From positions 1 to 19,424 of the forward strand of contig JBCCXA010000045.1 of the NCBI GenBank assembly GCA_039192515.1: 19,424 bases of DNA, given 5' to 3'. A program made the translations under genes and the position numbers. The notes under the pieces were generated by a model. It was not told the DNA's origin. It was given only the letters and a program-made list of their open reading frames with translations, and made no database searches. Source of the stretch: Verrucomicrobiota bacterium (GTDB lineage: Bacteria > Verrucomicrobiota > Verrucomicrobiia > Methylacidiphilales > JBCCWR01). Below, one piece after another: positions 509 through 19,424 of the stretch; the first letter of the stretch is position 1; every line of letters begins with the position of its first letter.

Positions 509-565
509 CTACGCTTGAACTAGGCTGATACCTCGAGCGTAAGCCCGCGGGAAGTTTATCTTTTG
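509..565 (+). terminator. Possible terminator-like imperfect hairpin followed by a T-rich stretch, downstream of the truncated plus-strand ORF.
   Basis: aagcTACGCTtgaactaggctgatacctcgAGCGTAagc forms an imperfect inverted repeat (509-542). ttatcttttgattttttttg follows at ~548-570. The T-run overlaps the 3' end of the convergent giant ORF. Confidence 0.2.
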
Positions 566-3500
566 ATTTTTTTTGTTGCTGCTTTTTTTGCACCCTTAGA
601 CTTTTCGTTAGGTGGTTGTTTGGGAGAATACTTCATCTGCTTAAGTACGTGTTGATATTCTTTCATAGCGTGACCGATGGCATTCTTCATTTCAGCAACT
701 TGTTCAATGCTGAGCGATGTCGATTGCTGGACTGTATACAACAACGTTTCCATCATCTGTGATTGCCTCTGGAGTAACTGATTGAAAGCTTCAGGCAAGC
801 TATAAACGATTTCAACTTGATAAGGAGAAGCAGTAGCATAGGACTCTTCAGGGGTAGGGGAGGGACTTTCCTGAATTACAGGGGTAGCTTGAGTTGCCAT
901 GCTTTCTTGAGATAATTGCTTTTCGGAGACCACTTCTTTTTTGGGAGGGATAAGGCCTCTTGCCAGAACTTTCTTGATCTCTTCCAGCCCCTCATTGAAG
1001 GCGGATAGCTGAACAGCAACTTTTCCAACAGGGTCATTTTCGTCTACCTTGTCAAAGCGAAGATTAGTCTGGAATTTACTTTTAATATCGTTCCAACGTT
1101 GTAATTCCAGATCTGTCAAAAGCTTATTAAGTTCTTTAAACTTTAGAAGGTTTGCTTCTGCCCCTGCAGTTAAGGTTTGGGCTTCACTTACATAGTGATC
1201 GATAATTAATTGATCCAACTCTTTTTCATTCATAATAGGGGCGATTTTTTCGGCTAACCGATTCATATTACGGTAGGATCCTTGTAACTTGAAGGGTGGC
1301 TCAGTGCGGTAAGCATCTGATTGGGAGGCAGAATGTATATAAGCTAGATTGACCCTTAAAATAACGTCACGTAGCTTGATCAACTTCTGCATGACATTCA
1401 CCATTTCATCTACTTCTTCCATCGAGAAGCTGCCTTCAAAATTGATACCTTCTTTGGAACCTGTCTCAGCGATACGGATAATGGAGTAAATATCCTTCTG
1501 GCTACGGCTTGCTAATTGATTCAAAACAGAGTTCGAGGTAATAGAGTTTTCGAGATAGCTCAATTTAAAGGCATTTTCACTCCCTCCAAGAATATCTCCT
1601 AGGTTATAGGTGTCTGCTCTATTGGCTAACATGTCTGGGATCTGAAATTTTTCTCCACTTTCAGTATATGGATTTCCCGCCATGACCACTGCCACTTTTT
1701 TACCTCTTAGGTCGTAAGTTTTGGGTTGCTTAGCCCAAACGCCTTCAATACGTCTTTGCCCATCACATAGGGAGATAAATTTTTGTAAGAGTTCCGGGTT
1801 ACAATGTTGGATATCATCCAAGTAAATCATCACATTATCACCCATTTCAAAGGCTAGGTTTAGTTTTGTGAGTTCTTCTCTGGCACTGGCATTGGGCGCT
1901 TCCTCAGGGTCTAGTGACATGACGCGGTGCCCCAAGGTGGGTCCACTAATTTTCATAAAGACTAATCCTAGTCGATTAGCGATATACTCCATCAGGGTTG
2001 TCTTACCATAACCAGGTGGAGATATAACGAGGAGGAGACCCATGAGGTCTGTTCTTTTAGATTCTCCTGCGTTGCCTAATTGTTTGGCTAGATTATCACC
2101 TACCATAGGCAGGTAAATATCATTAATTAAGCGGTTCCGGACAAAAGAGCTTAAAACGCGAGGTTTAAATTCATCCAGTTTTAATTTTCTCCTCTCTTCA
2201 CGAATCAGATCCTTTTTGGCGTTCTGATAGGACTCAAACTGTGGAGTGATATTCTTTTCGAAAAAGGACAAGCGTTTTATGAACTCGTGATAATCTAATG
2301 TGTATCCCTTCTGGTTCAAGCTAGGATGGTTTCCTCTTAATTTACCTAAAGATTTTGTTGCTGAAGTGCTGACTATTTTAAATTTATTTTGACTATCCAG
2401 GAGTATCAGAATCGAAGCTTCGTCAACATGTTGAATAAGTTTAGTATCATTTAGCTCACGGGCAAAGCCTCCGACCCAGTCGCGGATAAGCTCAAAGAGG
2501 CTTGACCGATTATTCTGAATTTCTGCGCAGGCGGTTTGGAATTTTTCTGCATACTGATTTGATTTCAGAGAAGTTTGGAATTCATTTACTAGCGTGACCG
2601 CACTCTGGCTAGTAGAAAAGCTAGTTCCATTGCTGAGTTCTAAAAATAAATATTCAGCCGCTAGAGGTGCGTATGTTGTCGGAAAGAGTTTAGTCTGTCC
2701 TAAAAAGTCGTTTATTTTAGATTCTAAATCTTCGATATACACATCGCAAAGTGGATTCCCTTGATAAAGTTCCTTCATTGTCCCAAAGCTGGCAAATTTG
2801 GTTTTTAAATTCTGCTTGCTTTGGTTCTCTTCGAATAAGCTCCAGAAGAGTAGTGCTGCTGTTCGAATGGATGGTGCATATCTAATGAGCCCTAAATTTT
2901 TATGTATGCTAAGAAGATTTGAGAATATGGTGGAGGCATCTTGATCATGAACACCTTTGACATAGCCTTCGGCATAGCGAGTGGACATAAACTCTTGTAA
3001 GTATGAATGTAAGTTATCTAAGTTTTTCCCTAGAGACCTCTGTAAAGTAACTTCATCGCTATTTTGGAATTGTTTTAAAAGTAGGTAAGCTAAATATTCT
3101 GCACGGTAGACGTCATCATTTTCTGAAATTACATCTTGAGTCCAAACTTGTCGGGTTTGAAGAAAACGGTCATCGGTAATTTTAGAGAAATAGTTTGTTC
3201 CAGTTAGGTGGAAGAACATATCATTCTCTTTTCTGACTATGGTTAAGTCCAGGGATTGCGTGTTTACAGAGAAGCTGTGTTTACCGAGTCGAATAATATT
3301 TTTCCCATCTATAAAGAGCTCTTGGCGGTCTTTTAATTGTCTGACAGAGTCCTCTTTGATAGTTTTAAGTCTGCCCTGAATATCATCTGCTTTGACGCTG
3401 TCTTCTAGTTGATGTAGCTCTTGAACAATATTGCGAATTTTTTCAACCATGAGATCTGCGGCCATATAGGCATTAATCTCATTGACAGTCTCTATGTTCT

Positions 3501-5859
3501 TAACACGATTACGTATACCATTAAAAATGCGTTCTGCTGAAGACATGAGCGCTTGGGCTCTTCTGTTTTTTGCTTCTACTAAGTTTAGCTTCTTAGACTC
3601 AAATGCATTATAGATTTCATCACGCTTTTCACTGATATCAGGTATAAACTCATCATATTCTGCAAATTGCCCCTCTAACTCTTCGAGTTGGATCATCAAC
3701 TTTGTCAAATATGCATCGCACTTCTCTGACGAGTCACAAAGGTCTAAGTAATTGACAACAGTTTGACCGATAAGTTTAAGCTGCGATCCGAATTGTGCTT
3801 TTGCTTCTGTTGAGCCTAATTCGCTTTTACGCTTCTTGAGTTCTGCTCTAGTTTGGTTGATGGATGAATAGATAGTAGAAATGTTATCTATTATTTTTGT
3901 CGTTTCTGTAGAGTCTTCTATTTTCAAGTTGCTTACAACATCAATAAGCATTTCAAGGCCGCTGCCCAAATGGTCGATCCTATCTTCTAAATCCTTGATC
4001 TCCATTACTGTGGAGGTATCTAAGACTTTATTCTGATGATCTTCAGCTTGCTGACGGTAGGTATTCAAGGCTTTAGGTTTTAAAAGAAATTTGACACAGT
4101 CTTCTGAAAGTTTTTGTGTATCTTCGGCAAGCGCACTCTCCATTTCATTTACACGCTCTAGATTCATATATCGAAGCTCTTTTAGAGATATTACTTCACC
4201 TCTTAGCATTCGCAGCTCTGTAAGTAGTTCTACAAATTGGGTGATTTCAGTAAATGAAGCTTTACAGGCCACTGCTAATTTCCCAGCTTTCGCTCTGGAA
4301 ATCTTTAATTGATCAGAAGCATGACGTTTTAGACGCACGACTTTGTCAAATTCATCAATGGCTGATTCCGAAGCTTGACGAATCTCGACTAGAGGCTTTT
4401 TGATCTCGAGAGCTTCAGGCTTATCTAGCCAGAAATATGCATCTGTGACAGTGGCAGTTTTGCTGACAAGATCAATATAGAGATCAGCATAGCTGTCATC
4501 TCGGTTAATGAGATTTAAGATCTCATGACATTCTGCCATACAGCGAACGAGTTCACGATTCCCAATTTTATAGAGAAAAGAGTCATTCTTCGTTTCTGTC
4601 GCTGCATTTGCGCAAAGAAAAGGTGTTTTCCAAACTTGTAGACTATGATGTTTTTGTGGTTCGCTACTTGATTTAAAATAGACCAATTCACCATTTTCGA
4701 ACAGTGAATACCCGTGACAAACGATGGGAGTTTTTACTTGCTGGTCAATAATGTTGTATTGCAACAATAGGTAGGTGCCACTTAAGCGGTTGTAGAATAC
4801 ATAAAGAAAATCCTCTCCATTAGGAGATTCAATTCTTCTAGAAAAAATCATATCTTTCAAATCGGTTCCGAATACTTTATGCTCGCCAGATTGTAAGTAA
4901 TAACCATCAGGAAAGATGATTCCATGGTCATCCGGTAGCAAAACACAAGCGCTTTCAATTTTATCGATACGAAGGACCTGATTGAGTTTTTCATTGAAAA
5001 CAAGGTGGCGAAAGTTCTTTTCTTGAAACGGTTTGACTTTTAAAAGAACAATTTTTCCCACGCTGGCATAGAAGATTTCTGCATCATCTAAAGTCTGATC
5101 TGGATTTTCTACTCTTTCTGAGTAAATGCCTTCTCCAACATCTGTATTGTTTTCGACTTTGACTGTTAGATCTCCCCCAGTAGTTTCAACGAAGAGACGA
5201 TTTTCAATGGATATATGCGGGTGACGTCCTTTTTGATGATGATCGCGGTGAGTCCGAATCCATTCAAATTCGTGTTGAGGAGGAAATGAAAATTCGTGGT
5301 CGAAACGATTACCTAAATACTTGATTTCGTCATTCTGTAAATTCCATTTAAAGGTCTTGATATCATTGATACTTTTACCAACGCGAAAGACCATAAAAAG
5401 ATTTGGCCCAATGATGCGAAATTTGGCAAACCTAGTATCTTTGTAGTATTTATATAACTGTTTAAAATCAAGAGGGAAGTCTCCTATAAAAATAATGCTT
5501 AAATCAAGTTCATGGAAGCTACTATCTTTATATTCATAGACTGAAAAAACATCACTAAGTTCTGTTTCAGTTTTTAAACCAAGATGAACATTATAGCCAA
5601 ATAGGAATCGATTTTTATTTAGAGGGGTGATGTCGCGAGCTACACAGTTATTTTTAGTTGTGACTCTGTCTGTCGTTAGTAAAGTTGACTCGATAGAACC
5701 AAACACTTCCTTGCGAGCTTGATTAAGGCGATTCAATCGTTCTTTTAAGTCTTCAGCATGATTCATTAGCCTGGATCTAATGATCTCGTAGGCACCGCTC
5801 TGTAGAGCTTCAGGTTTTTCTTTAGCGGTAGAGTCTTCTATGACTGCGTCTTCTGCCAT
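556..5859 (-). CDS. Giant 1767-aa multidomain protein. It has an N-terminal beta-rich domain (about aa 1-480), a long coiled-coil/alpha-helical region (about aa 480-1250), one AAA+ ATPase module of AAA_5 type (MoxR/McrB/dynein-like, about aa 1260-1480), and a C-terminal helical region with a P/S/T-rich linker and lysine-rich tail.
   Basis: An uninterrupted 5304-nt ORF with an ATG start at 5859 (MAEDAV...). The Walker A P-loop SPPGYGKTT is encoded at + coordinates 1996-2013 (residues 1283-1288). The Walker B-like hhhhDD motif (VMIYLDDIQH) is at about 1813-1827. The sensor/arginine region VAVVMAGNPYTESGEKFQIPDMLANRADTY is at about 1640-1695. The pattern D(D/E)I..N...LL..L...(insert)...NP...G...P.AL.NR is characteristic of AAA_5 family ATPases. 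Long heptad-like E/K/L/Q-rich stretches lie between aa ~480 and ~900. The basic C-terminal tail is KSKGAKKAATKKIKR. Confidence 0.8.
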   Translation of the reverse strand: MAEDAVIEDSTAKEKPEALQSGAYEIIRSRLMNHAEDLKERLNRLNQARKEVFGSIESTLLTTDRVTTKNNCVARDITPLNKNRFLFGYNVHLGLKTETELSDVFSVYEYKDSSFHELDLSIIFIGDFPLDFKQLYKYYKDTRFAKFRIIGPNLFMVFRVGKSINDIKTFKWNLQNDEIKYLGNRFDHEFSFPPQHEFEWIRTHRDHHQKGRHPHISIENRLFVETTGGDLTVKVENNTDVGEGIYSERVENPDQTLDDAEIFYASVGKIVLLKVKPFQEKNFRHLVFNEKLNQVLRIDKIESACVLLPDDHGIIFPDGYYLQSGEHKVFGTDLKDMIFSRRIESPNGEDFLYVFYNRLSGTYLLLQYNIIDQQVKTPIVCHGYSLFENGELVYFKSSSEPQKHHSLQVWKTPFLCANAATETKNDSFLYKIGNRELVRCMAECHEILNLINRDDSYADLYIDLVSKTATVTDAYFWLDKPEALEIKKPLVEIRQASESAIDEFDKVVRLKRHASDQLKISRAKAGKLAVACKASFTEITQFVELLTELRMLRGEVISLKELRYMNLERVNEMESALAEDTQKLSEDCVKFLLKPKALNTYRQQAEDHQNKVLDTSTVMEIKDLEDRIDHLGSGLEMLIDVVSNLKIEDSTETTKIIDNISTIYSSINQTRAELKKRKSELGSTEAKAQFGSQLKLIGQTVVNYLDLCDSSEKCDAYLTKLMIQLEELEGQFAEYDEFIPDISEKRDEIYNAFESKKLNLVEAKNRRAQALMSSAERIFNGIRNRVKNIETVNEINAYMAADLMVEKIRNIVQELHQLEDSVKADDIQGRLKTIKEDSVRQLKDRQELFIDGKNIIRLGKHSFSVNTQSLDLTIVRKENDMFFHLTGTNYFSKITDDRFLQTRQVWTQDVISENDDVYRAEYLAYLLLKQFQNSDEVTLQRSLGKNLDNLHSYLQEFMSTRYAEGYVKGVHDQDASTIFSNLLSIHKNLGLIRYAPSIRTAALLFWSLFEENQSKQNLKTKFASFGTMKELYQGNPLCDVYIEDLESKINDFLGQTKLFPTTYAPLAAEYLFLELSNGTSFSTSQSAVTLVNEFQTSLKSNQYAEKFQTACAEIQNNRSSLFELIRDWVGGFARELNDTKLIQHVDEASILILLDSQNKFKIVSTSATKSLGKLRGNHPSLNQKGYTLDYHEFIKRLSFFEKNITPQFESYQNAKKDLIREERRKLKLDEFKPRVLSSFVRNRLINDIYLPMVGDNLAKQLGNAGESKRTDLMGLLLVISPPGYGKTTLMEYIANRLGLVFMKISGPTLGHRVMSLDPEEAPNASAREELTKLNLAFEMGDNVMIYLDDIQHCNPELLQKFISLCDGQRRIEGVWAKQPKTYDLRGKKVAVVMAGNPYTESGEKFQIPDMLANRADTYNLGDILGGSENAFKLSYLENSITSNSVLNQLASRSQKDIYSIIRIAETGSKEGINFEGSFSMEEVDEMVNVMQKLIKLRDVILRVNLAYIHSASQSDAYRTEPPFKLQGSYRNMNRLAEKIAPIMNEKELDQLIIDHYVSEAQTLTAGAEANLLKFKELNKLLTDLELQRWNDIKSKFQTNLRFDKVDENDPVGKVAVQLSAFNEGLEEIKKVLARGLIPPKKEVVSEKQLSQESMATQATPVIQESPSPTPEESYATASPYQVEIVYSLPEAFNQLLQRQSQMMETLLYTVQQSTSLSIEQVAEMKNAIGHAMKEYQHVLKQMKYSPKQPPNEKSKGAKKAATKKIKR

Positions 5860-5931: not shown

Positions 5932-8013
5932 TTAATCTAAAACACTAGATACGTTGTTATCGCTGATACCTGACCTTTGAGCTATGCCCATAAGGCTCTC
6001 GATTAACCCTTTGGATTTAGGATCTGATGCTTGGTTAAGCATCTTTCCTAATGCAGCTGCTATGGTTAGGTTCATAATGTCTTCTGATGTAACACCTATC
6101 TGACCCATGAGATTTCGCAATTGTGAGCGAAAGTATTCAGGGTCCGAATTAAAAAAAGTTTTTTCGATGTTCGTAAGCACATTGCTTTTTCCTACAAGAC
6201 CATCAACCGATTTGCCTGCTGTAATAGCGTTAGTGATTTTATCGAAGAATTGAGTTTCTCCACCGATAATATCTACTTTGGCATTCTTAAGGGCCTCAGC
6301 TACCACAGAAGCTTGGCTTGTGGCGATGTCTTTTTGAATATCGATTTCAGCCAGTTGGATTTCCTTGTTCATATCTAACTTCAAACGGAACTCTTCGTGA
6401 TCGCGCCCCACTTCATCAAATAGTTTCATAGCTTCGGCCTTCTTGTGGATTCCTGTGGCTTCGGCTTCTGCTTTCATTTGAATCACGTTAGCTTCAGCCG
6501 TTCCCTCTTTTTCAAGAGCATGTGCTTTAGCTTCCATAACCTGAACATCCGCCATTCCAGCTGCAGCACATTCGGCAGCATCTGCCTCTGCCATGAGTTT
6601 TTGGGCGGCAGATTTCTTCTGAGCAGCTTTATAGTTTGCCTCAGCATCAATAACTACTTTTTCAGCTTCAAATTCCTTGGCTCTTTTGTCTGCCTCAGCT
6701 GCCTTCATTTGTATGATTAAGGCCTGTTCAGCTTCTTTCTCCGCTGCCGTAACATGAACTTTTTTATCACGATCGGCAGTAGCAAATGCTTCAGTATCCT
6801 TTATGCGTTCCTGTTCTTCGACAACTTGGCGTTCAACCATCACCCGTTCTCGAATAACGTCTTGGATACTTTTTTCCTCGAGTTCAACCGCACGAGTCTT
6901 CTCAATCCTAGCAAGTTCTACCACTCGTTCACGTTCTACTTTCTCGAGTAATTTATCTTTCTCTACGCGCTCAAGCTCCACGGCATCGGTGCGTTCTTTA
7001 TTGCGAACTGCTACGACGAGCGCTCGGTTCTTGTTCTCTTCAGCAATCTGAACTTCCTCATCCGTAGCAATACGAGCTAATTCAGATTTTTGGCGCTCTT
7101 TTTCCTGAACAGTTTTAGCTTCAGCTTGCTCACGGGCTGTAATTGCAGCAATTTCTCTTTGTTGTTTTTGTTCTGCCTCAGCTAGTTGCTTGTTTAGTTC
7201 TAAGACCGCTTCTCTGGCTTCAACATCTTGTTGAGTGATAATCTTTTCTTTTTCTCGATCAATCTCATTGGCCAAAATTTTCTGTTTCGCAGTTAAGTCG
7301 GTAATTTTCTTAATACCCTCTGAGTCCAGGATATTATCCGGATTTAAGAATTCTAGCTTTGTTTGTTCGAGGTAGTCGATAGCTGCATCATCAAGGACAT
7401 AGCCATTCAGATCTGTTCCAATTTGTTCTAGAATTTCATCTTTAAACTCTCTCCGAGCATTGTAGAGGTCTACAAAATCAAATTTTCTACCCACTGTTTT
7501 GAGTGCTTCGGAGAATTTTGCATCGAAAAGTGCTTCAAGCATCTTTTCATCGGAGGCACGTTTGCAACCAACAGATTGTGCTACTTTGAGAACGTCTTCT
7601 TGAGTCTTGTTCACTCTGACAAAAAAAGCGACTTTGATGTCTGCCCGCATGTTATCTCTGCAAATCAAACCATCTGCGCTAATTCTCGTGATTTCTACTC
7701 GCTTCACGGAAATTTCCATGAACTCCACGCGGTGCATAATAGGAACGATGAACATTCCATCAAAAGAGACTTTTGTGCCTCCCAAACCATTGCGAACCAG
7801 TGCTTGGCCTTGATCAACTTTTCTATAAAACTTCATGGCCATTACTAATAATGCTACAAATCCCAATACTAATAAGATCACTCCTGTTATTCCTATTGAT
7901 GTTATGATACCTCCGAGTCCAGAAAAAAACTCTCCAATTGCTGAAGAGCTTTGTTCAACTTCATACTGCCCCAGAATAAGCCAGGAACCGATGACTTGCT
8001 CTATGTTATTCAT
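5932..8013 (-). CDS. Flotillin-like SPFH/band-7 protein (YqiK/FloT type, 693 aa). It has an N-terminal TM helix, an SPFH domain, a long Glu/Ala-rich coiled coil and a C-terminal domain.
   Basis: The N-terminal hydrophobic helix is GGIITSIGITGVILLVLGFVALLVMAM. The SPFH-like core is RKVDQGQALVRNGLGGTKVSFDGMFIVPIMHRVEFMEISVKRVEI..ADGLICRDNMRADIKVAFFVRV. An extensive EA/EK/ER-repeat coiled coil (AEAEQKQQREIAAITAREQAEAK...) is typical of bacterial flotillins. It sits immediately downstream of a YqiJ/NfeD-like gene, as in the yqiJK and yuaF-floT arrangements. Confidence 0.85.
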   Translation of the reverse strand: MNNIEQVIGSWLILGQYEVEQSSSAIGEFFSGLGGIITSIGITGVILLVLGFVALLVMAMKFYRKVDQGQALVRNGLGGTKVSFDGMFIVPIMHRVEFMEISVKRVEITRISADGLICRDNMRADIKVAFFVRVNKTQEDVLKVAQSVGCKRASDEKMLEALFDAKFSEALKTVGRKFDFVDLYNARREFKDEILEQIGTDLNGYVLDDAAIDYLEQTKLEFLNPDNILDSEGIKKITDLTAKQKILANEIDREKEKIITQQDVEAREAVLELNKQLAEAEQKQQREIAAITAREQAEAKTVQEKERQKSELARIATDEEVQIAEENKNRALVVAVRNKERTDAVELERVEKDKLLEKVERERVVELARIEKTRAVELEEKSIQDVIRERVMVERQVVEEQERIKDTEAFATADRDKKVHVTAAEKEAEQALIIQMKAAEADKRAKEFEAEKVVIDAEANYKAAQKKSAAQKLMAEADAAECAAAGMADVQVMEAKAHALEKEGTAEANVIQMKAEAEATGIHKKAEAMKLFDEVGRDHEEFRLKLDMNKEIQLAEIDIQKDIATSQASVVAEALKNAKVDIIGGETQFFDKITNAITAGKSVDGLVGKSNVLTNIEKTFFNSDPEYFRSQLRNLMGQIGVTSEDIMNLTIAAALGKMLNQASDPKSKGLIESLMGIAQRSGISDNNVSSVLD

Positions 8014-8036: not shown

Positions 8037-8693
8037 TTAATCCATTTTTACTTCTTCGATTTTGCGAACGAGATAGGCTCCATTAGCCTTGTCATGTTTA
8101 ACTACTAGGGCGGAATCACCTCGTCTTAAATTTTGACTATCATCAGAAACTCTGACCTCCAGAGTAATACTGGAGCCAGATATATTGAGATCCGCTTGAC
8201 CAAAATCGGCTCTGACTTCTCCAGTTCTGATCTTACAAATCTGTCCTAGGACTCTCTTCTTACTTAAACCAATTTGGTTAAAATTTCTGAAAACGTAACG
8301 AAGCGGACGCGTAATCAAAGCACTTGCAAAAATAGCTAAAATAAAGCTAGGAATGACTATGAGTGCAGAAACCAAGAGAGAACCAAACGGAAAAAGATAG
8401 TTAGCGATAATACATAGGGCCCAAGTCACAAATACAATAACATTGAGGATGATCATCAAGGGAACTTCTCCTATGTTAAAAAACTTTAGTATTTGTGTGG
8501 ATGCTCCGACATGAGCATCAGCGTTTAAATCTAACTCTAAGTCAACATCACCATCTAGATCGAAATCAAATTCTAATGCATCAATATCTAAGCCGCCTAA
8601 AATAACTAGTACCCAATAAATCGCAAATAGCCCTAATATCACAGTTAGAACAAGATTCACTGGTTGTATGATTTGATCTAAAAATAGTCCCAT
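8037..8693 (-). CDS. YqiJ/NfeD-like inner-membrane protein (218 aa). It has TM helices, an acidic DxD-rich loop and a C-terminal NfeD-type OB-fold domain.
   Basis: It has an N-terminal TM segment, then the acidic stretch LDIDALEFDFDLDGDVDLELDLNADAH, then two further hydrophobic helices, then a C-terminal beta-rich segment (GQICKIRTGEVRADFGQADLNISGSSITLEVRV...GDSALVV) matching the NfeD short-form architecture. It is 23 bp upstream of the flotillin gene on the same strand. Confidence 0.75.
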   Translation of the reverse strand: MGLFLDQIIQPVNLVLTVILGLFAIYWVLVILGGLDIDALEFDFDLDGDVDLELDLNADAHVGASTQILKFFNIGEVPLMIILNVIVFVTWALCIIANYLFPFGSLLVSALIVIPSFILAIFASALITRPLRYVFRNFNQIGLSKKRVLGQICKIRTGEVRADFGQADLNISGSSITLEVRVSDDSQNLRRGDSALVVKHDKANGAYLVRKIEEVKMD

Positions 8694-9090: not shown

Positions 9091-9717
9091 TTATAGAGGT
9101 GCTGTCTTTTTCGATTTGGTAATAGCGCGGACGATGCCTAACGTATCAAATCCTAGTTGCACGAGCATTTGAACAGGTTGTTTGTCTTCTTTTGCCCAAG
9201 AGATATAGGTCCAGTATTCATCAACAATGAGATCGTCAGCAGATGCTCTTGAGCCTTTTACATGATTGAGTGATTTGCCATTGGGCTCTCCTAAGAGGCT
9301 CAAGACTGCATTTTGGGTGGTTAAGCCTTTTTTTATCTCATCAATGTCAGTGATTAGGGTGTCGTGTTGATCTGGCTGGTAGCTGCTAAAGAAAAAGTAG
9401 GAATCTAGGACTTTCTTGGGAGCATCTGGTGGTTGATAAAAGACTAGCTCGAGGGAGCGTGCATCTTGGATGGTGCCCAACCAAATCTCAACATTGGCAT
9501 TGCTGAAGTTAAAGACATCAAATTCACCATCGTTATTTGAGATTGATTGAGTTGTATTCGGTTTACCTAGCAGAGCAATGGCTTGTTGAGGTGTTGTTGT
9601 GCCTAATGCCAAGCTAGATATAGAGTGATGATTGAAGTCACGACCTATTTGATTGGTGCTAGCACATGAGAGAAGCAGAACGGATAGGAGTATATAGTGA
9701 AGGGATAATCTTTTCAT
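9091..9717 (-). CDS. Putative lipoprotein (208 aa), function unknown.
   Basis: The N-terminus MKRLSLHYILLSVLLLSCAST carries a signal peptide and a lipobox (LLSC). Its ATG overlaps the proC stop by 4 nt (ATGA), suggesting translational coupling. The stop codon is TAA at 9091-9093. Confidence 0.65.
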   Translation of the reverse strand: MKRLSLHYILLSVLLLSCASTNQIGRDFNHHSISSLALGTTTPQQAIALLGKPNTTQSISNNDGEFDVFNFSNANVEIWLGTIQDARSLELVFYQPPDAPKKVLDSYFFFSSYQPDQHDTLITDIDEIKKGLTTQNAVLSLLGEPNGKSLNHVKGSRASADDLIVDEYWTYISWAKEDKQPVQMLVQLGFDTLGIVRAITKSKKTAPL

Positions 9718-10544
9718 TTGCTTTTGAGGTTCTTGCCAAGTTCTATAGAGCGGTTGTGGGCGGCCTGAAAAGCTTTTTCGATGATTTCTGAGAAGGAATG
9801 TTCCGAAAAGCTATTCAGGGCAGCTTCGGTAGTGCCTCCTTTGCTTTTTACCTGATCGATTAGATATTCTGGGGATTTCTCGCTATTTTCAATCATAAGG
9901 CTTGCTCCTTTCGCTGTTTGATTGGCAAGTTTGAGTGCTATATCTGGATCAAGTCCATGTTTGATAGCAGCTTGCTGCAGAGCTTCGATGAAGAGATAAA
10001 AATAGGCGGGTCCTGAGCCGCTAAGAGCAGTAACTGCATCGAGTTGTTTTTCTTCAACCTCAAAGACAAGGCCTACAGCCCTAAAAATGTCTTCCGTAAT
10101 AACTTTATCTGAGTCAAGAGCATATTGGTTGACAGCATATGCGGTAGCACCTTCTCCAAGAAGCAGAGGTGTGTTTGGCATGGTTCGTATGATGCGCGCC
10201 TTTTCCATGAGATGCTTTTCTAGGTAGTCGAGTGTGATACCAGCGGCAATCGAAATGATAAGAGCTGAGCTAACGGTGCTCGAGGATTTAATAGTGGGTA
10301 AGACGTCATTCATCTGCTGAGGCTTTACGGCAAGAAGGATGGTATCTACATCAGTAATGGTTTCCTGGGTACTATTTCTCCAGCAGTTTTGGCATTCAGG
10401 GAAGTTATTGAGGAATGAATCCTTGCTCCCATCATCTGTGCGCCCTGTAATCAGTATATCTGTAGGAGTAATAGCGTTTGTGTTTAGTAAACCTCTCACT
10501 ATAGCACTAGCCATACGCCCTGCTCCAATGAACCCTATCCTCAT
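9714..10544 (-). CDS. proC: Pyrroline-5-carboxylate reductase.
   Basis: The N-terminal Rossmann motif MRIGFIGAGRMASAIVRGLL and a length of 276 aa fit. The ProC-typical C-terminal dimerisation region is present (GGTTEAALNSF..). Confidence 0.88.
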   Translation of the reverse strand: MRIGFIGAGRMASAIVRGLLNTNAITPTDILITGRTDDGSKDSFLNNFPECQNCWRNSTQETITDVDTILLAVKPQQMNDVLPTIKSSSTVSSALIISIAAGITLDYLEKHLMEKARIIRTMPNTPLLLGEGATAYAVNQYALDSDKVITEDIFRAVGLVFEVEEKQLDAVTALSGSGPAYFYLFIEALQQAAIKHGLDPDIALKLANQTAKGASLMIENSEKSPEYLIDQVKSKGGTTEAALNSFSEHSFSEIIEKAFQAAHNRSIELGKNLKSK

Positions 10545-10744: not shown

Positions 10745-12700
10745 ATGATGGAAACAAAAGATTGGCATGAGTTGGTTTTTCTTGAAAACCTCGCTCAACA
10801 ATATCCTTCGCGTGATGCAGCTATTCTAGAGATAGCGGCTTTAGAGGCCCAGCTCAAGCTACCCAAACCAGTTGTTCATGTCATTAGTGATATCCACGGA
10901 GAGTATAAAAAGTTACGTCACGTGGTAAATAACGGTTCGGGTAAGTTGAGGCCTCTTATAGATGAACTCTTCTCTGAAGAAAGATCTGAAGTGGAAAGAG
11001 CAGAGCTTTTAGCAACCATTTACTATCCGATGGAACTTATGGATAGCTTAAGTCATATCATGAAGGGCTGTGATAGAAGGTTGCAATGGGTAAAAAAGAC
11101 TCTTAGGGCACAAATTAAACTCGCCAGGTATCTAGCAAGAGGCTTGAGGAATAAAGATGTGCTCGCTTTGATTGATAGAGAGTGGCGAGAATTTTTTTAC
11201 GAAATGTTATATGAGCCAGTAGCCGGTCGAGGCGAAATATACATGGATGCTAGAATTGCCTCATTAGCTGAGAATGATCGAGATCTAGCGGCTGTGAGAA
11301 GATGCTCAAGGCTTGTCCGAAATATTTCTACGCAAGAACTCATTGTAGCAGGTGATTTGGGGGACAGAGGCCCTCGGATTGACCGAGTGATTGATTTTCT
11401 TCAACGACTGCCCAGGGTGTCCATGCTGTGGGGCAATCATGATGTATCTTGGATGGGAGCCTGTCTTGGGCATGAGGCATTGATAGCGAATGTCTTGAGA
11501 ATATCGCTAAGGTATAGGCGTCTCTTTCAACTAGAAGAGGGCTACGGGTTATTGTTGCTTCCACTGGAACAGTTGGCTCAGAAAATATATGGGAATGATT
11601 CTGCAGAGAGATTCTTTTCTAAGGGTCATGGGATGCGTGATTCTTTATTGGTGGCTCGTATGCAGAAAGCAATTGCCATAATTCAATTTAAGCTAGAGGG
11701 GCAATTGACTCAGAAGTATCCAGAATGGGGGATGGAGGAGAGAAACCTCTTGCATCGCATCGACTATGAAAAAGGAACCGTTCAGATTGAAGGAAAAACT
11801 TATGAGCTTTTAGACACAGTTTTTCCCACAATTGATCCCCAAAATCCTTATGAACTCTCTGGGGATGAAAAATTATGCATGGATCGGCTCCGGCAAAGTT
11901 TTGTGCTTAGTAACAAGTTATGGCATCACATGTCTTGGATGGAGCGTATTGGTTCCATGTACACGGTCAGAGATGGTGTTGTCATTTTCCATGCCTGCAT
12001 GCCTGTAGATGAAAATGGGGAATGGTTAAAACTTGAAATTGATGGGCAAGAGGTGGCAGGGCGAAAGATGTATGATGCGTTTGATACTATTATCAGGCGC
12101 GCTTTTCGAAAAGGAGCGAACAAGGCTGACGATGATATTGATTGGTTTTGGTACCTGTGGGCTGCCCCCGATTCCCCTCTATTTGGAAAAGACAAGATGA
12201 CGACTTTTGAGGGTTATTTTGTTGCAGAAAAGGAAACACATATAGAGAAAAAGAATGCTTATTTTTCTTTGATACAGGAGTACCCATTTTGTTGTCGACT
12301 TGGCAGAGAAATGGGCGCTAGGGCTGAGGATGAAGTCCTCATTGTGAATGGCCATGTTCCCGTAAAAGTGGACGAAGGTGAGGAGCCGGTTAAACAAAGT
12401 GGCAATGCCGTGATTATAGACGGGGCGTTCTCAGAAGCTTATGGTGATAGAGGATACACACTAGTCATGGGGCCTCAAGAAATTACATTAGCTGAGCATC
12501 ATCATTTTGAATCCATACACGACGTGATTAAAAACGATCGAGATGTTATCCCTAAAGTCATGACTATCCTGCCTTATGAAAAGAGGCGCTTAGTTGAAGA
12601 TACTGAAGAAGGAGAGAAAATTAAAGAGCAAGTAGTTGCTCTTAAGCGTCTGGTATACGCCTATGATGAAGGATTAATTAGAGAAAAATCAGTGAAATGA
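10745..12700 (+). CDS. fbp: Fructose-1,6-bisphosphatase class 3 (Firmicute Fbp/YydE type, metallophosphoesterase fold), 651 aa.
   Basis: The size (~640-650 aa) and the N-terminal pattern LENLAQQYPSRDAAILEIAALEAQLKLPKPVVHVISDIHGEYKKLRHVVNNGSG match the class-3 FBPase signature (…SDIHGEY…NGSG). An internal metallophosphoesterase motif GDLGDRGP..GNHD is present. Translation may start at either of the tandem ATGs at 10745/10748. Confidence 0.8.
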   Translation: MMETKDWHELVFLENLAQQYPSRDAAILEIAALEAQLKLPKPVVHVISDIHGEYKKLRHVVNNGSGKLRPLIDELFSEERSEVERAELLATIYYPMELMDSLSHIMKGCDRRLQWVKKTLRAQIKLARYLARGLRNKDVLALIDREWREFFYEMLYEPVAGRGEIYMDARIASLAENDRDLAAVRRCSRLVRNISTQELIVAGDLGDRGPRIDRVIDFLQRLPRVSMLWGNHDVSWMGACLGHEALIANVLRISLRYRRLFQLEEGYGLLLLPLEQLAQKIYGNDSAERFFSKGHGMRDSLLVARMQKAIAIIQFKLEGQLTQKYPEWGMEERNLLHRIDYEKGTVQIEGKTYELLDTVFPTIDPQNPYELSGDEKLCMDRLRQSFVLSNKLWHHMSWMERIGSMYTVRDGVVIFHACMPVDENGEWLKLEIDGQEVAGRKMYDAFDTIIRRAFRKGANKADDDIDWFWYLWAAPDSPLFGKDKMTTFEGYFVAEKETHIEKKNAYFSLIQEYPFCCRLGREMGARAEDEVLIVNGHVPVKVDEGEEPVKQSGNAVIIDGAFSEAYGDRGYTLVMGPQEITLAEHHHFESIHDVIKNDRDVIPKVMTILPYEKRRLVEDTEEGEKIKEQVVALKRLVYAYDEGLIREKSVK

Positions 12701-15637: not shown

Positions 15638-16435
15638 TTGCGTGTTGAGTCTAGCATGGTTTGCTTTATGAAAAATTTTCAGTTATCAGCGAAATGGATT
15701 ATTCTATGGAGTATGAGTTATTTGCTCTTGCCAGAAGCTGTATTAAGTAATGAAGATACGAAAACTGTCCTGATGCTTGATCAGATCACTCTCTATTCAA
15801 ACTATCCTGTCAAAAGAGATATTATCACTACTTGTTTCTGGGTTGGTGAAGGTCGTAGCAGATATAGCCGCACTACAAATTACAAGAGCGCTTGGGATGG
15901 GTCTTGGACAAAAAACTTTGGCGGAACAGACTGTCCAGCTGATCGTTTTTCTTTTAACGACGGAAAGATCACCTTACCGGTTGAGTTCGCTCCCACTCTC
16001 AATCCTTTTTATGTGGCGCTTCCTTTTAACGATGTGAAATACCCTAAAACGGCTCGTAAATATGTGCCTTGGTGGAACGAATCTAAGCATCGAGAATCGA
16101 GATGGTCTTCTCAATGTAAAGGCCGTTGGGTTATGATTGAGTTCAAGGGGAAGGTATGCTTCGCTCAATGGGAGGATGTTGGACCGTTTCGATACGACCA
16201 CGTTTCTTACGTTTTTGGGAATGATCGTCCTCGGATCCATACGAGAGCTGGTTTGGATGTTTCTCCTGCAGTCCGTGATTACTTAGGGATGGACGGCTTA
16301 GACAAAACCAATTGGCGTTTCGTGGAAGATGATGAAGTGCCTTACGGTCCATGGATTGAATACGGCGAGCAAGCCATCATCTATTCAGTTATCAAAAATC
16401 AGGGTGCGGTTCAAACAAATGCCAAAGATCTTTAG
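15638..16435 (+). CDS. Secreted hypothetical protein (up to 265 aa). It may have an RlpA/expansin-like double-psi beta-barrel segment near the C-terminus (tentative).
   Basis: It has a hydrophobic signal-like N-terminus (MKNFQLSAKWIILWSMSYLLLPEAVLS; the true start may be the ATG at 15656 or 15668). The segment RWVMIEFKGKVCFAQWEDVGPF..DHVSYVFGNDRPRIHTRAGLDVSPAVRDYLG loosely resembles the V.V.N..NG.S..VR.NDRGPF...IDLS.AA pattern of DPBB proteins. A sigma70-like promoter lies upstream. Confidence 0.55.
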   Translation: MRVESSMVCFMKNFQLSAKWIILWSMSYLLLPEAVLSNEDTKTVLMLDQITLYSNYPVKRDIITTCFWVGEGRSRYSRTTNYKSAWDGSWTKNFGGTDCPADRFSFNDGKITLPVEFAPTLNPFYVALPFNDVKYPKTARKYVPWWNESKHRESRWSSQCKGRWVMIEFKGKVCFAQWEDVGPFRYDHVSYVFGNDRPRIHTRAGLDVSPAVRDYLGMDGLDKTNWRFVEDDEVPYGPWIEYGEQAIIYSVIKNQGAVQTNAKDL

Positions 16436-16970: not shown

Positions 16971-19424
16971 TTACAATTTAGTTAAGGTAGATTTTAAGGT
17001 TTTTTCTTCGAGTTTGATCTTTTTAGGATTTTCTTCTGAATTTGTCTTTGTTTCAAGCTGGGCTTCTTTTTTTTCTATGATGAATAGCTCTTTTTCTTCC
17101 TCAGATGCCTTCGATGGCAATGGCTCCATTCTTTGAATGATTTCAGATTTCCCCATGGGTTGATCTCGAGAACTCTGAGGTTCAGTTTTTCGGATGTCTT
17201 TGTTACTGAGTAGGTTGCGGAGCATTTTTTCTAAGAACATTGATTTTCCTATAGCTGCGCTTTTACCTGAACTGGCAATGGGGTCATCATATGTTGCCGA
17301 TGCAGAAGGCTTTATATGGGTTCTTATCGGTTTACTTCCAACTAAAGAATAAGAGACATTCTTTTGCTTGGTATCCTGGACTATGATGCCTGCATTAGCC
17401 CGGGTCGGTTTTAAGCTAATTAACTTTTGGCCTACCCCTGATTTAAAGGCTACGCGAGGTGGTCTTTCCAGGCTTTGCTCTTGGAAGATGGTTTCTAAGC
17501 TTCGCTCGGTTTCTTGACCATTTATTGCAAAGATTTTTTGGCCATTTTCCAACTCCACTACACCATAAACTCCAGACTGGATAATGACTCCCGCCACTGA
17601 AACGATAGGAACACTATTTGATTGAACAATGAAATCAGAAGCTTGGCTGGAAAGCTCACTTTCTCCTGAGCCGCTGCTGCTACCTCCGGATCCTCCACCG
17701 GAACTAGAGGCAGAGTAATAAAAGACATTACCTGTCCCTAAGGGATCTGCGCCGAAGCTCACACTGAATTGCTCAGTTCCTGTTAAGCCGCCTTTGTTAT
17801 GTGGAGCGCTGTTATCTAGTGAATAGACTAAGAAGCGGGAAGCAGAGCTTAAGGCACCAGCACCAGCGTTGTTGATGAAAGAGCCACTAGCTGCTTCTAG
17901 AGTAATATCATTTCCTCCACCAGTCGTGGTGATGGTTGTTCCAGAGGCCAGTGTTAGATCTCCTACGGTTCGGATAAGCACATCATTTGTCGTAGTTCCC
18001 CCGATGTTGCCATCAATGATTAGCCCACCAGCACTATCGAAAAGAGAAAAGGCTCCACCACGAGTGACGTTGCCTAACGTAGTAATTGCATTTGATGTGT
18101 GATTCAGAGTGAAAGTTCCATTACCCAGAAGGTTGAGTCCCCCGACGGTAATTGCTTCGCTTTGAGTGACGTTACCTGAGGTTGTGAATGTCAGATCATT
18201 GGAGCCAATATTAAGACCCGTGGTGGTAGAGCCATTTACAGTCAAACTGCCTATTGCTAAATCATTTGTGTCGGTGTAGGAAAGAGAGCCACCAGATCCA
18301 GCTATGGTGGTAATGTCATTACCCGCGTTCGTTAGAGTTTTAGCACCACTTCCTTTTAACACTAATCCAGTAGCAGCAATGGCTTGAGTTTGGGTGAGTG
18401 CACCACCTGTTTCTAAACTCACATCATTAGCTCCTACATTGATGCCATTGGTGGAGCCTACGCTTCCAACTGCTAAATCATCGGTATCTCTAAAGGAAGT
18501 TTCGCCTCCGGATACTGCGATGGTGTTTACATCGTTACTGGCGTTTTCTAGGGTCTTGGCCCCACTTCCAGTAAGCTCTAACCCAGCTGCACTAAGGGCC
18601 TGGCTTTGAGTAACCGATCCTGTTGAAGAGAGAGTGAGATTACCTGAAGTGGTAAGTCCAGTGGTATTAACGGTGCCAATGTCAAAGCCACTATTCTCCA
18701 GGAAGCTAAGCGAGCCGGTATTACCTGCTAGAGTGGTGATGGCATTACCGGTATTCGTTAGGGTAAATGCTCCGCCAGCACCTAAGAGTTCTAATCCGGC
18801 TGCACTAAGGGCTTGGCTTTGGGTAACCGATCCAGTAGAGGAGAGAGTGAGGTTGCCTGAAGTGGTGAGTCCAACAGTATTGACTGTTCCAATGTCAAAG
18901 CCACTGTTCTCTAAAAAGCTAACCGATCCGGTGTTACCTGCTAGGGTAGTAATCGCATTAGCCGTATTGGTTAGGGTAAACGCACCACTGGCTCCGAGGA
19001 GTTCGACACCGGCAGCAGTGATGGCACCGCTTTGAGTGACCGTGTTATCGGCCGTGAAACTGAAGTTGCCTGTGGTATTAATCAGCGCGATGTCTGCGGT
19101 GCCAATTTCCTGGATAGCAATATTACCGCTAGCATTGGCGCTATCAGCGGTGTTGCGGGATTGCGCGCTGATAGACCCAAAGGTGTTACCGACATTGGTT
19201 AGGGTAATATCCTGACCAGTGTCATTGGTGGTTTTAAATGTTGCGGCGTTGGTGACATTGATGGCACCGGTATTGGTAATGGCGCCAGTGGAGGTGACAT
19301 CCAGGGTATTGCTAGCGGTGGTCGCGCCAATGGCTAAGCCATCGGTTTCGGAAAGGGTGATGGTGCCAGTGTTACCAGCTAGGGTATCGATATCATTACC
19401 GGAGCGAGTAATGGTATAGCTTCC
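16971..19424 (-). CDS. C-terminal >817 aa of a very large beta-helical repeat protein. It is adhesin-like and carries Pmp-like GGA[F/L] and FxxN motifs. The N-terminus is outside the window.
   Basis: I translated the minus-strand frame by hand. It is open from the window edge (19424) to the stop near 16971, with no ATG/GTG/TTG before the GTG at 18422. This explains why the ORF track lists only 483 aa. The sequence is dominated by G/T/S/N/A/L repeats of ~71 aa (…VTQSQALSAAGLELLGAGGAFTLTNTGNAITTLAGNTGSLSFLENSGFDIGTVNTTGLTTSGNLTLSSTGS…). It then has a Gly/Ser linker (SSSGGGSGGSSSGSGESE), a ~150-aa non-repeat region and a K/E-rich C-terminal tail. There is no C-terminal autotransporter beta-barrel. 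Confidence 0.8.
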   Translation of the reverse strand, partial: GSYTITRSGNDIDTLAGNTGTITLSETDGLAIGATTASNTLDVTSTGAITNTGAINVTNAATFKTTNDTGQDITLTNVGNTFGSISAQSRNTADSANASGNIAIQEIGTADIALINTTGNFSFTADNTVTQSGAITAAGVELLGASGAFTLTNTANAITTLAGNTGSVSFLENSGFDIGTVNTVGLTTSGNLTLSSTGSVTQSQALSAAGLELLGAGGAFTLTNTGNAITTLAGNTGSLSFLENSGFDIGTVNTTGLTTSGNLTLSSTGSVTQSQALSAAGLELTGSGAKTLENASNDVNTIAVSGGETSFRDTDDLAVGSVGSTNGINVGANDVSLETGGALTQTQAIAATGLVLKGSGAKTLTNAGNDITTIAGSGGSLSYTDTNDLAIGSLTVNGSTTTGLNIGSNDLTFTTSGNVTQSEAITVGGLNLLGNGTFTLNHTSNAITTLGNVTRGGAFSLFDSAGGLIIDGNIGGTTTNDVLIRTVGDLTLASGTTITTTGGGNDITLEAASGSFINNAGAGALSSASRFLVYSLDNSAPHNKGGLTGTEQFSVSFGADPLGTGNVFYYSASSSGGGSGGSSSGSGESELSSQASDFIVQSNSVPIVSVAGVIIQSGVYGVVELENGQKIFAINGQETERSLETIFQEQSLERPPRVAFKSGVGQKLISLKPTRANAGIIVQDTKQKNVSYSLVGSKPIRTHIKPSASATYDDPIASSGKSAAIGKSMFLEKMLRNLLSNKDIRKTEPQSSRDQPMGKSEIIQRMEPLPSKASEEEKELFIIEKKEAQLETKTNSEENPKKIKLEEKTLKSTLTKL
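18560..19030. repeat. Direct tandem repeat with a 213-bp (71-codon) period. It has about 2.2 near-identical copies (~85% nt identity). More degenerate copies continue on both sides (roughly 17900..19424).
   Basis: The strings gctgcactaagggcctggctttgagtaaccgatcc at 18587 and gctgcactaagggcttggctttgggtaaccgatcc at 18800 are offset by exactly 213 nt. The antisense ORF 18634..19035 shows the duplication as repeated …SSNPAALRAWL… blocks. Confidence 0.85.

Follow-up and report, generated by a model that had tools for sequence, protein, structure and literature searches.

PspA is a bacterial relative of ESCRT-III, flotillins of the YqiK type face the cytoplasm (the topology of FloT and YqiK), and the AAA+ protease FtsH works together with the SPFH cage of HflK/C. 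That SPFH and ESCRT-III proteins have long been functionally linked was pointed out by Makarova et al. (PMC10936438), where bacteria are also said to be without a Vps4-like ATPase for PspA; a further review from 2025 (PMC7619361) likewise states that such an ATPase appears to be absent in bacteria. The closest described system is the one of Ravi et al. 2024 (mSystems, PMC11237479), in which both the architecture and the gene context of a family of large ATPases were already presented. In that work, the ATPase genes share operons with genes for a band-7/flotillin protein and a YqiJ/YuaF membrane protein, to which a CesT/Tir-PspA pair is often added, and abbreviated operons without the PspA pair are the more widespread form. 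The text of its supplement does not mention the domain DUF3686. The gene considered here encodes a giant AAA+ ATPase of 1767 aa, and it lies in a window of 19,424 nucleotides (the whole stretch of DNA that was analysed; contig JBCCXA010000045.1, assembly GCA_039192515.1) from a metagenome-assembled genome (MAG) of a Verrucomicrobiota bacterium. This ATPase, named 'DNA repair ATPase' at NCBI, probably acts in membrane upkeep and not in DNA repair, and its neighbour genes are the main clue to its function.

The three genes of the operon are as follows:

8037..8693, minus strand: YqiJ/YuaF-like membrane protein of 218 aa, first gene of the operon (Pfam, BLASTP, hydrophobicity scan)
5932..8013, minus strand: YqiK-type flotillin (SPFH protein) of 693 aa (hhalign against E. 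coli YqiK)
556..5859, minus strand: giant AAA+ ATPase gene, 1767 aa, stop codon included; NCBI name 'DNA repair ATPase'

The genes follow one another in the order YqiJ-like gene, flotillin and ATPase on the same strand, with gaps of 23 nt and 72 nt, and the operon of the window represents the short three-gene form. To place it in context, 80 related loci were compared on contigs taken as one genome per species, covering Bacteroidota, Planctomycetota, Verrucomicrobiota, Lentisphaerota, Desulfobacterota, Myxococcota, Acidobacteriota, Cloacimonadota and Alphaproteobacteria; a locus was counted as informative when it had enough sequence. Of 64 informative loci, 61 have a flotillin gene upstream in the same orientation, and a YqiJ-like gene precedes the ATPase in 59 of 62. 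Many phyla share the three-gene order, and the only neighbour families that recur are flotillin, YqiJ-like, PspA, CesT/Tir and a helix-turn-helix (HTH) plus S24-like regulator. A functional link of the ATPase to the flotillin/YqiJ pair is considered likely, with good confidence. As a wider explanation, the ATPase may be a soluble cytoplasmic mechano-enzyme that works with the YqiJ-like protein, the flotillin and, where operon-linked, PspA; this is the best overall account of the data, and its chances are judged to be about even.

The identity of both partner proteins was assigned by sequence comparison. The 218-aa protein matches Pfam YqiJ_N (E 3.5e-5) and E. coli YqiJ (BLASTP E 1e-5), and contains about three hydrophobic (transmembrane) segments followed by a C-terminal soluble domain. 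The flotillin has one N-terminal hydrophobic segment (residues 29-66) and a long A/E-rich helical region. Its family, represented by an alignment of 29 orthologues, matches E. coli YqiK in hhalign with a probability of 99.95% and an E-value of 3e-38, and this alignment grows to 535 columns at low stringency, nearly end to end. A C-terminal extension particular to the ATPase-linked flotillins was also considered, and it is ruled out by the same near end-to-end alignment. No Pfam Band_7/flotillin match at E <= 0.01 was obtained for the window flotillin or for 28 of the 29 orthologues, and a profile search of the PDB returned only a weak match to QmcA. Pfam thus has a coverage gap for the flotillin subfamily of these operons.

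In part of the related loci, the operon is extended. PspA/IM30 is present in 26 of the 80 loci (Pfam E 2.4e-15), usually just upstream of the YqiJ-like gene or downstream of the ATPase, and CesT_Tir_1 (PF22550, E 1.6e-51) lies just upstream of PspA in 16 loci. Beside the extended operon of 16 Bacteroidota loci, to which CesT_Tir_1 and PspA are added on the upstream side, a divergently transcribed regulator with HTH_3 and Peptidase_S24-like domains (LexA/CI-type) is found, for example at 2434-4489 of L018 and in L022, L025, L026, L027 and L042. This regulator suggests a cleavage-controlled induction of the whole cluster. Two PspA paralogues stand upstream of the YqiJ-like gene in the Planctomycetota/Phycisphaerae loci L013 (5013-6500), L019, L028 and L074, and a third PspA directly follows the ATPase in L013 (14634-15350), L019 and L074. 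In L013, the start of this PspA gene overlaps the stop codon of the ATPase gene (14634 versus 14637), which suggests translational coupling.

A further arrangement is found on pQBR103, a megaplasmid of Pseudomonas fluorescens (L082, 986-14190), where a cluster of the YjfI-PspA/polyamine type forms one gene string with the SPFH protein and the 'DNA repair ATPase'. Its order is YjfI, PspA, rhomboid, DUF2491, DUF350, DUF1190, glutathionylspermidine synthase, a hypothetical protein, SPFH and 'DNA repair ATPase'; a phospholipase D gene lies about 8 kb downstream. In about 25 of the related loci, unrelated variable genes stand between flotillin and ATPase (for instance, L020 9325-9813, L070 9409-9897, L049 9212-9868 and L080 7670-9887). 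Judged by eye, these inserts include a REP-associated transposase-like gene, a DUF559-like protein and an ABC transporter pair, and the flotillin-ATPase junction seems to tolerate or attract insertions. An open reading frame (ORF) of 2644 aa near the homologue in L037 was rejected as an operon relative; its sequence resembles nonribosomal peptide synthetases and polyketide synthases (NRPS/PKS) and has no BLASTP similarity to the operon proteins.

The ATPase itself belongs to a large family. Its sequence is 100% identical to an NCBI protein from a Verrucomicrobiota MAG (P0001) and, because of this identity and of more than 6000 full-length homologue clusters (at 90% identity, aligned over the full length of the ATPase), 556..5859 is regarded as a real coding ORF and not as a chance reading frame. 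DUF3686 (PF12458) occupies residues 37-476 (E 2.8e-185) and covers the full 448-position profile, whereas residues 1276-1400 give weak Pfam matches, of about 1e-6, to both AAA and AAA_5, with no choice between the two. DUF7902 (PF25472; residues 596-679, E 1.4e-26) lies inside the helical rod described below. The best 120 homologues are 1619-1906 aa long, 50-61% identical at 90-100% query coverage, and do not differ in Pfam content. The same family was recovered when only the AAA module served as the query, and homologues from nine or more listed lineages share 48-55% identity with the ATPase. Extra ankyrin repeats occur in the homologues P0006, P0013 and P0091, and TPR repeats in P0046 and P0062; such additions fit protein-protein contacts at one end of the protein.

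The initial annotation of this DNA, made from the sequence alone, had described a single AAA module in an arrangement that it did not recognise, and had left the neighbour genes out of account. This arrangement (Pfam DUF3686 + DUF7902 + AAA) is the standard architecture of a very large catalogued family. The ATPase is placed in the DUF3686-DUF7902-AAA family because of its domains, its collinear full-length homology, its invariant motifs and its operon partners. It is a typical verrucomicrobial member of a known, uncharacterised family, so that the sequence itself is no discovery.

Conservation, expressed as the mean majority fraction per alignment column in each region, is highest in the AAA core (0.90), followed by the propeller-like domain and the N-terminal helix of residues 21-53 (both 0.73) and the helical rod (0.70). 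It falls to 0.52 in the middle helical domain and to 0.15-0.35 in the C-terminal linker, helices and tail. For a mere spacer, 0.70 in the rod is a high value.

The AAA+ module contains the following elements:

1603..2076, minus strand: AAA+ alpha/beta core, residues 1262-1419 (Pfam, AF2, motif scan, structural comparison)
1996-2019, minus strand: Walker A PPGYGKTT, residues 1281-1288
1813-1830, minus strand: Walker B MIYLDD, residues 1344-1349
1711-1752, minus strand: pre-sensor-1 beta-hairpin, residues 1370-1383 (AF2)
1672-1674, minus strand: putative sensor-1 residue N1396, its role deduced from fold position
1618-1620, minus strand: candidate arginine finger R1414, its role deduced from fold position

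Structure was modelled with AlphaFold2 (AF2) in two overlapping halves, residues 1-900 and 840-1767, from 61-sequence alignments. The first model reached a mean predicted local distance difference test score (pLDDT) of 84.1, and the second a pLDDT of 80.4 with a predicted template modelling score (pTM) of 0.68. In the second model, the core (residues 1276-1419) runs through beta1, Walker A, alpha1, beta2, a conserved loop, alpha2, beta3 (carrying D1348/D1349) and alpha3, and continues with the hairpin 1370-1383, beta4 ending at N1396, a loop, a helix ending at R1414 and beta5. The two hairpin strands (1370-1375 and 1378-1383) lie between alpha3 and beta4 with pLDDT of about 83-92. The nucleotide-binding and hydrolysis motifs of the module are intact and invariant: Walker A, Walker B, N1396, R1414 and R1530 do not vary in 61 and in 32 homologues. 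By their place in the model, N1396 would be sensor 1, R1414 the arginine finger and R1530, in an invariant GSYR, a candidate sensor 2.

Regular-expression scans of the ATPase found zero matches to [AG]xxxxGK[ST]; the sole P-loop-like site is GYGKTT, of the GxxGKT form and one residue shorter, and MIYLDD is the only match to hhhhD[DE]. The motif positions of the initial annotation agree with these results: GYGKTT is at residues 1283-1288 (nt 1996-2013 in plus-strand coordinates), IYLDDI at 1345-1350, the NP...NR segment AVVMAGNPYTESGEKFQIPDMLANRADTY at 1390-1418, and GPNLFMVFRVGKS (residues 151-163) contains no P-loop, as had been noted. With a single Walker A and Walker B and one alpha/beta core in the AF2 models, the protein has one AAA+ module only and, at 1767 aa, is neither a six-module protein like midasin or dynein nor a MoxR protein of about 300 aa, just as had been proposed. 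The 'characteristic insert' reported after Walker B does exist, but it equals the beta-hairpin 1370-1383 at the position of the pre-sensor-1 hairpin, a feature of the clade.

As to the class of the module, the AAA+ core is structurally closest to members of the MoxR family, namely CbbQ (6l1q) and NorQ (9qh4). The alignment with CbbQ covers 242 of 267 residues and reaches past the alpha/beta core into the lid and extension. By this structural comparison, the single AAA+ module is of the MoxR type and not of the Vps4 type. An assignment of clade by sequence searches of the PDB, made with the protein, a full-length profile and an AAA-only profile, was discarded; only the P-loop stretch of p97, Rix7 and RuvB was matched, which gave no assignment.

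Outside the core, the models divide the chain into these regions:

5701..5799, minus strand: N-terminal helix, residues 21-53, with a heptad-like pattern, before the beta domain (AF2)
4627..5685, minus strand: beta-rich domain, residues 59-411, about 26 strands, core of DUF3686
3319..4401, minus strand: helical rod, residues 487-847, with helices of 16-58 residues; includes DUF7902 (596-679)
2077..3297, minus strand: family-specific middle region, residues 855-1261 (AF2)
952..1602, minus strand: lid and helical extension, residues 1420-1636, with the invariant RTEPPFKLQGSYRNMN segment (AF2)
559..951, minus strand: variable C-terminal region, residues 1637-1767, made of a linker, two low-confidence helices (1690-1743) and a K-rich tail (1753-1767)

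At residues 29-58, the heptad score exceeds the 99th percentile of shuffles. Beta strands dominate the N-terminal region, and neither the AF2 model nor the motif scan shows a P-loop there, in line with the earlier description. Its domain 59-411 looks like a divergent beta-propeller, being only distantly propeller-like, and is followed by helices at residues 428-479. The rod 487-847, taken earlier for a coiled coil, is modelled as antiparallel bundles of the spectrin/BAG type. Both heptad-like stretches that had been quoted were located (residues 561-591 and 725-757), and the approximately 400 residues between rod and AAA core had been overlooked. This middle region consists of a small beta unit (855-893), an all-helical domain (919-1154), strands (1160-1189) and pre-AAA helices (1190-1261), and it shows no Pfam match and no profile similarity to the AAA core. 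A hydrophobicity scan found no transmembrane segment in the ATPase.

In the C-terminal region, residues 1637-1691 and 1743-1767 have a pLDDT below 50, and the K-rich tail is disordered. The lysine-rich end was correctly placed at residues 1753-1767 in the initial annotation, but its suggested binding of membrane or nucleic acid is unsupported by conservation, the tail being K/R-rich in only about 6 of 61 homologues. Helices within residues 1690-1767 (559-790 of the window) carry a partly conserved family consensus, VLxxQFxxMxxWxxP, before the non-conserved basic tail. The C-terminal helix pair could be a docking or autoinhibitory element. Overall, the observation behind the initial annotation is confirmed, and its interpretation is partly supported.

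Taken together with the gene context, this architecture suggests how such an enzyme might work. The AAA+ modules would assemble into a ring, hexameric like those of CbbQ, NorQ and RavA, and each subunit of the ring would project a helical arm tipped by the propeller-like domain. This domain may bind PspA polymers, the flotillin cage in the cytoplasm or both. It would serve as an adaptor within the chain, in the role that a separate VWA/MIDAS partner plays for MoxR ATPases and midasin. ATP hydrolysis, passed through the rod, would then pull on, disassemble or recycle membrane scaffolds. Such remodelling would be an ATP-driven step of envelope-stress repair, a functional analogue of the action of Vps4 on ESCRT-III. 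This specific mechanism of scaffold remodelling is offered as a tentative proposal. The ATPase family is a plausible energy source for the dynamics of flotillin and PspA, a link already published as a prediction (Ravi et al.). A bolder formulation is that the family fills a gap said to exist in bacteria, as the ATP-driven remodeller of flotillin cages and PspA polymers. It would be a non-homologous functional counterpart of Vps4, a MoxR-type ring that carries its propeller adaptor in the same chain; this possibility is not favoured at present.

Several points weigh against the best overall account. In every aligned homologue, Walker B ends in DD in place of the usual DE. Active AAA+ ATPases rarely show this, and the enzyme may hydrolyse ATP slowly or under regulation. 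At the site of the MoxR helix-2 insert, the highly conserved residues 1306-1323 that link beta2 to alpha2 are modelled as a short helix and loop, not as a hairpin. At the level of genes, neither PspA nor CesT/Tir is encoded in the 19.4-kb window, and flotillin is absent from 3 of the 64 informative loci. E. coli has yqiJ-yqiK without such an ATPase, and flotillins therefore do not generally need it. The formation of a ring, the binding partner of the propeller and the direction of remodelling are all features that we infer. A literature search found no experimental work on any member of the ATPase family. Finally, gene neighbourhood cannot separate an action on the scaffold from an action on clients held by it.

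This last point leads to the main rival, in which the ATPase is a client chaperone at flotillin platforms that unfolds, extracts or matures membrane-associated proteins gathered by the flotillin cage and leaves the scaffold untouched, as may be likened to FtsH inside the HflK/C cage or to MoxR ATPases maturing enzyme complexes. The MoxR-type fold argues for it, given that the known MoxR proteins CbbQ and NorQ act on client enzymes, and the evidence from the operon is equal to that for scaffold remodelling. Ravi et al. (PMC11237479) propose a chaperone-like role in assembling membrane-linked complexes, and FloA-NfeD of S. aureus is reported, in work cited in PMC13086221, to stabilise unfolded proteins without ATP. 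On the other hand, no conserved client gene lies nearby, since it is the flotillin, YqiJ-like, PspA and CesT/Tir families that recur, and Pfam finds neither a protease domain nor a VWA adaptor (VWA domains are absent from the ORFs of the window, as judged by Pfam, and from conserved neighbours). The client chaperone is judged unlikely. A role in defence, where a large nucleoside triphosphatase senses phage infection or other conflict and a membrane effector acts, draws on the frequent occurrence, in defence systems, of large ATPases that carry sensor domains of the repeat type, on the unrelated genes between flotillin and ATPase in about 25 loci and on one marginal PADLOC match (mad8, E 0.0036, P-loop only). 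Such a role is very unlikely because the three operon proteins have no real match in PADLOC 2.0 (flotillin and the YqiJ-like protein zero hits), no homologue occurs in 50,697 phage records, and only 13 of 72,556 plasmid records hold homologues, these being megaplasmids, chromids or chromosome-sized records filed as plasmids; in addition, the 48-55% identity across at least nine listed lineages and the strongly conserved AAA core (0.90) are unlike fast-evolving defence genes, and the flanks of the window are housekeeping genes (proC, FBPase, rpsB, tsf).

Two other explanations concern the nature of the ATPase itself. A coiled-coil ATPase on DNA, like SMC, Rad50 or SbcC, is suggested only by names passed down in databases ('DNA repair ATPase', 'ATPase involved in DNA repair') and by the long helical region; the LexA/CI-type regulator beside the extended operon in 16 Bacteroidota loci points the same way. 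Nevertheless, Walker A and B are 60 residues apart in one AAA+ core and not split across the ends of a coiled coil, and Pfam finds neither a nuclease nor a DNA-binding domain. The homologues do not conserve the basic tail, and no conserved repair genes lie nearby, the conserved partners being membrane proteins. The SMC/ABC alternative is rejected because the structural neighbours listed for the C-terminal model, 60 in number, are without exception AAA+ proteins, which also bears out the earlier assignment of the P-loop to the AAA class. A DNA repair ATPase is extremely unlikely, and the name probably spread from entry to entry through coiled-coil similarity. Virtually no weight is given to a midasin- or dynein-like protein with several cryptic, degenerate AAA modules. 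In hhalign, the N-terminal domain, rod, middle region, pre-AAA helices and post-AAA region each matched the AAA core with less than 1% probability, and the midasin-like alternative is rejected because of this result, the one Walker A/B and the absence of a second alpha/beta core; in other words, the single-module claim holds against AF2 models, motif scan and hhalign alike.

The remaining content of the window is of a different kind. Upstream of the operon, a BamE-domain protein of 208 aa with a lipoprotein-like N-terminal signal (9091-9717, minus strand) is paired with proC (9714-10544, minus strand), and a gap of about 400 nt, with no promoter above shuffled controls, separates this pair from the YqiJ-like gene. 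Promoter and terminator scans performed no better than on shuffled sequence, and Rfam gave no match. A fructose-1,6-bisphosphatase (FBPase) of class 3, the 'Firmicute-type' (PF06874), is encoded at 10745-12700 in this Verrucomicrobiota MAG. An ORF of 265 aa (15638-16435, plus strand) has no Pfam match, and another of 483 aa (16971-18422, minus strand) has only weak matches to DUF5649 repeats. The flanks of the window consist of housekeeping genes: proC, class-3 FBPase, rpsB and tsf.

The importance of the family lies in its size, in its conservation over at least a dozen phyla and in a database name that is unsupported here, as well as in its tie to flotillin and PspA scaffolds, whose bacterial dynamics have no known energy source. 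If the remodelling proposal is true, bacteria of many phyla would actively recycle their membrane-repair scaffolds, and thousands of database entries would carry a wrong label in 'DNA repair ATPase'. Beyond the published description, the models add exactly one AAA+ module, of the MoxR and not the Vps4 type, a predicted rod of spectrin-like bundles and a beta domain that is distantly propeller-like, and they offer K1286, D1348/D1349, N1396 and R1414 as targets for mutation.

SMC, Rad50 and SbcC have an ABC-type head, with Walker A at the N-terminus and the signature and Walker B at the C-terminus, split by an antiparallel coiled coil, an arrangement not found here. Midasin/Rea1 and dynein, which are eukaryotic and function in ribosome biogenesis or on microtubules, share the AAA_5-type module and, as far as the models suggest, a ring joined through a long helical element to a distant substrate-binding domain; in contrast, they carry six AAA modules per chain instead of one, and the binding domain is N-terminal here, in reversed order. 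MoxR proteins (CbbQ 6l1q, NorQ 9qh4 and RavA of the same family) are stand-alone ATPases of about 270-500 aa with a separate VWA/MIDAS partner, whereas here a propeller-like domain, a rod and a middle domain come first and the module sits near residue 1260 of 1767, with Walker B as DD and no VWA gene nearby. The pairing of an AAA+ machine with an SPFH cage protein is shared with FtsH and HflK/C, but FtsH is a membrane-anchored, classical-clade AAA protease in a periplasm-facing cage, while the window ATPase has neither a transmembrane segment nor a protease domain. The Vps4 and classical AAA clade is recognised by a MIT domain, by a classical core that lacks the pre-sensor-1 hairpin and by an ESCRT-III gene next door, features that differ from those of the window ATPase; in a subset of loci, an AAA+ gene nevertheless adjoins a gene of the ESCRT-III family (PspA), as in the Vps4/ESCRT-III systems of archaea and eukaryotes, which suggests an analogous recycling of polymers. 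The closest relation is to the family of Ravi et al. 2024 (PMC11237479). The window lacks the CesT/Tir-PspA pair, which occurs, as the pair or as PspA alone, in 16-26 of the 80 related loci and on pQBR103; in domain order, length, motifs and the flotillin and YqiJ/YuaF partners, the two agree, and more than 100 members are 50-61% identical over 90-100% of the length of the window ATPase.

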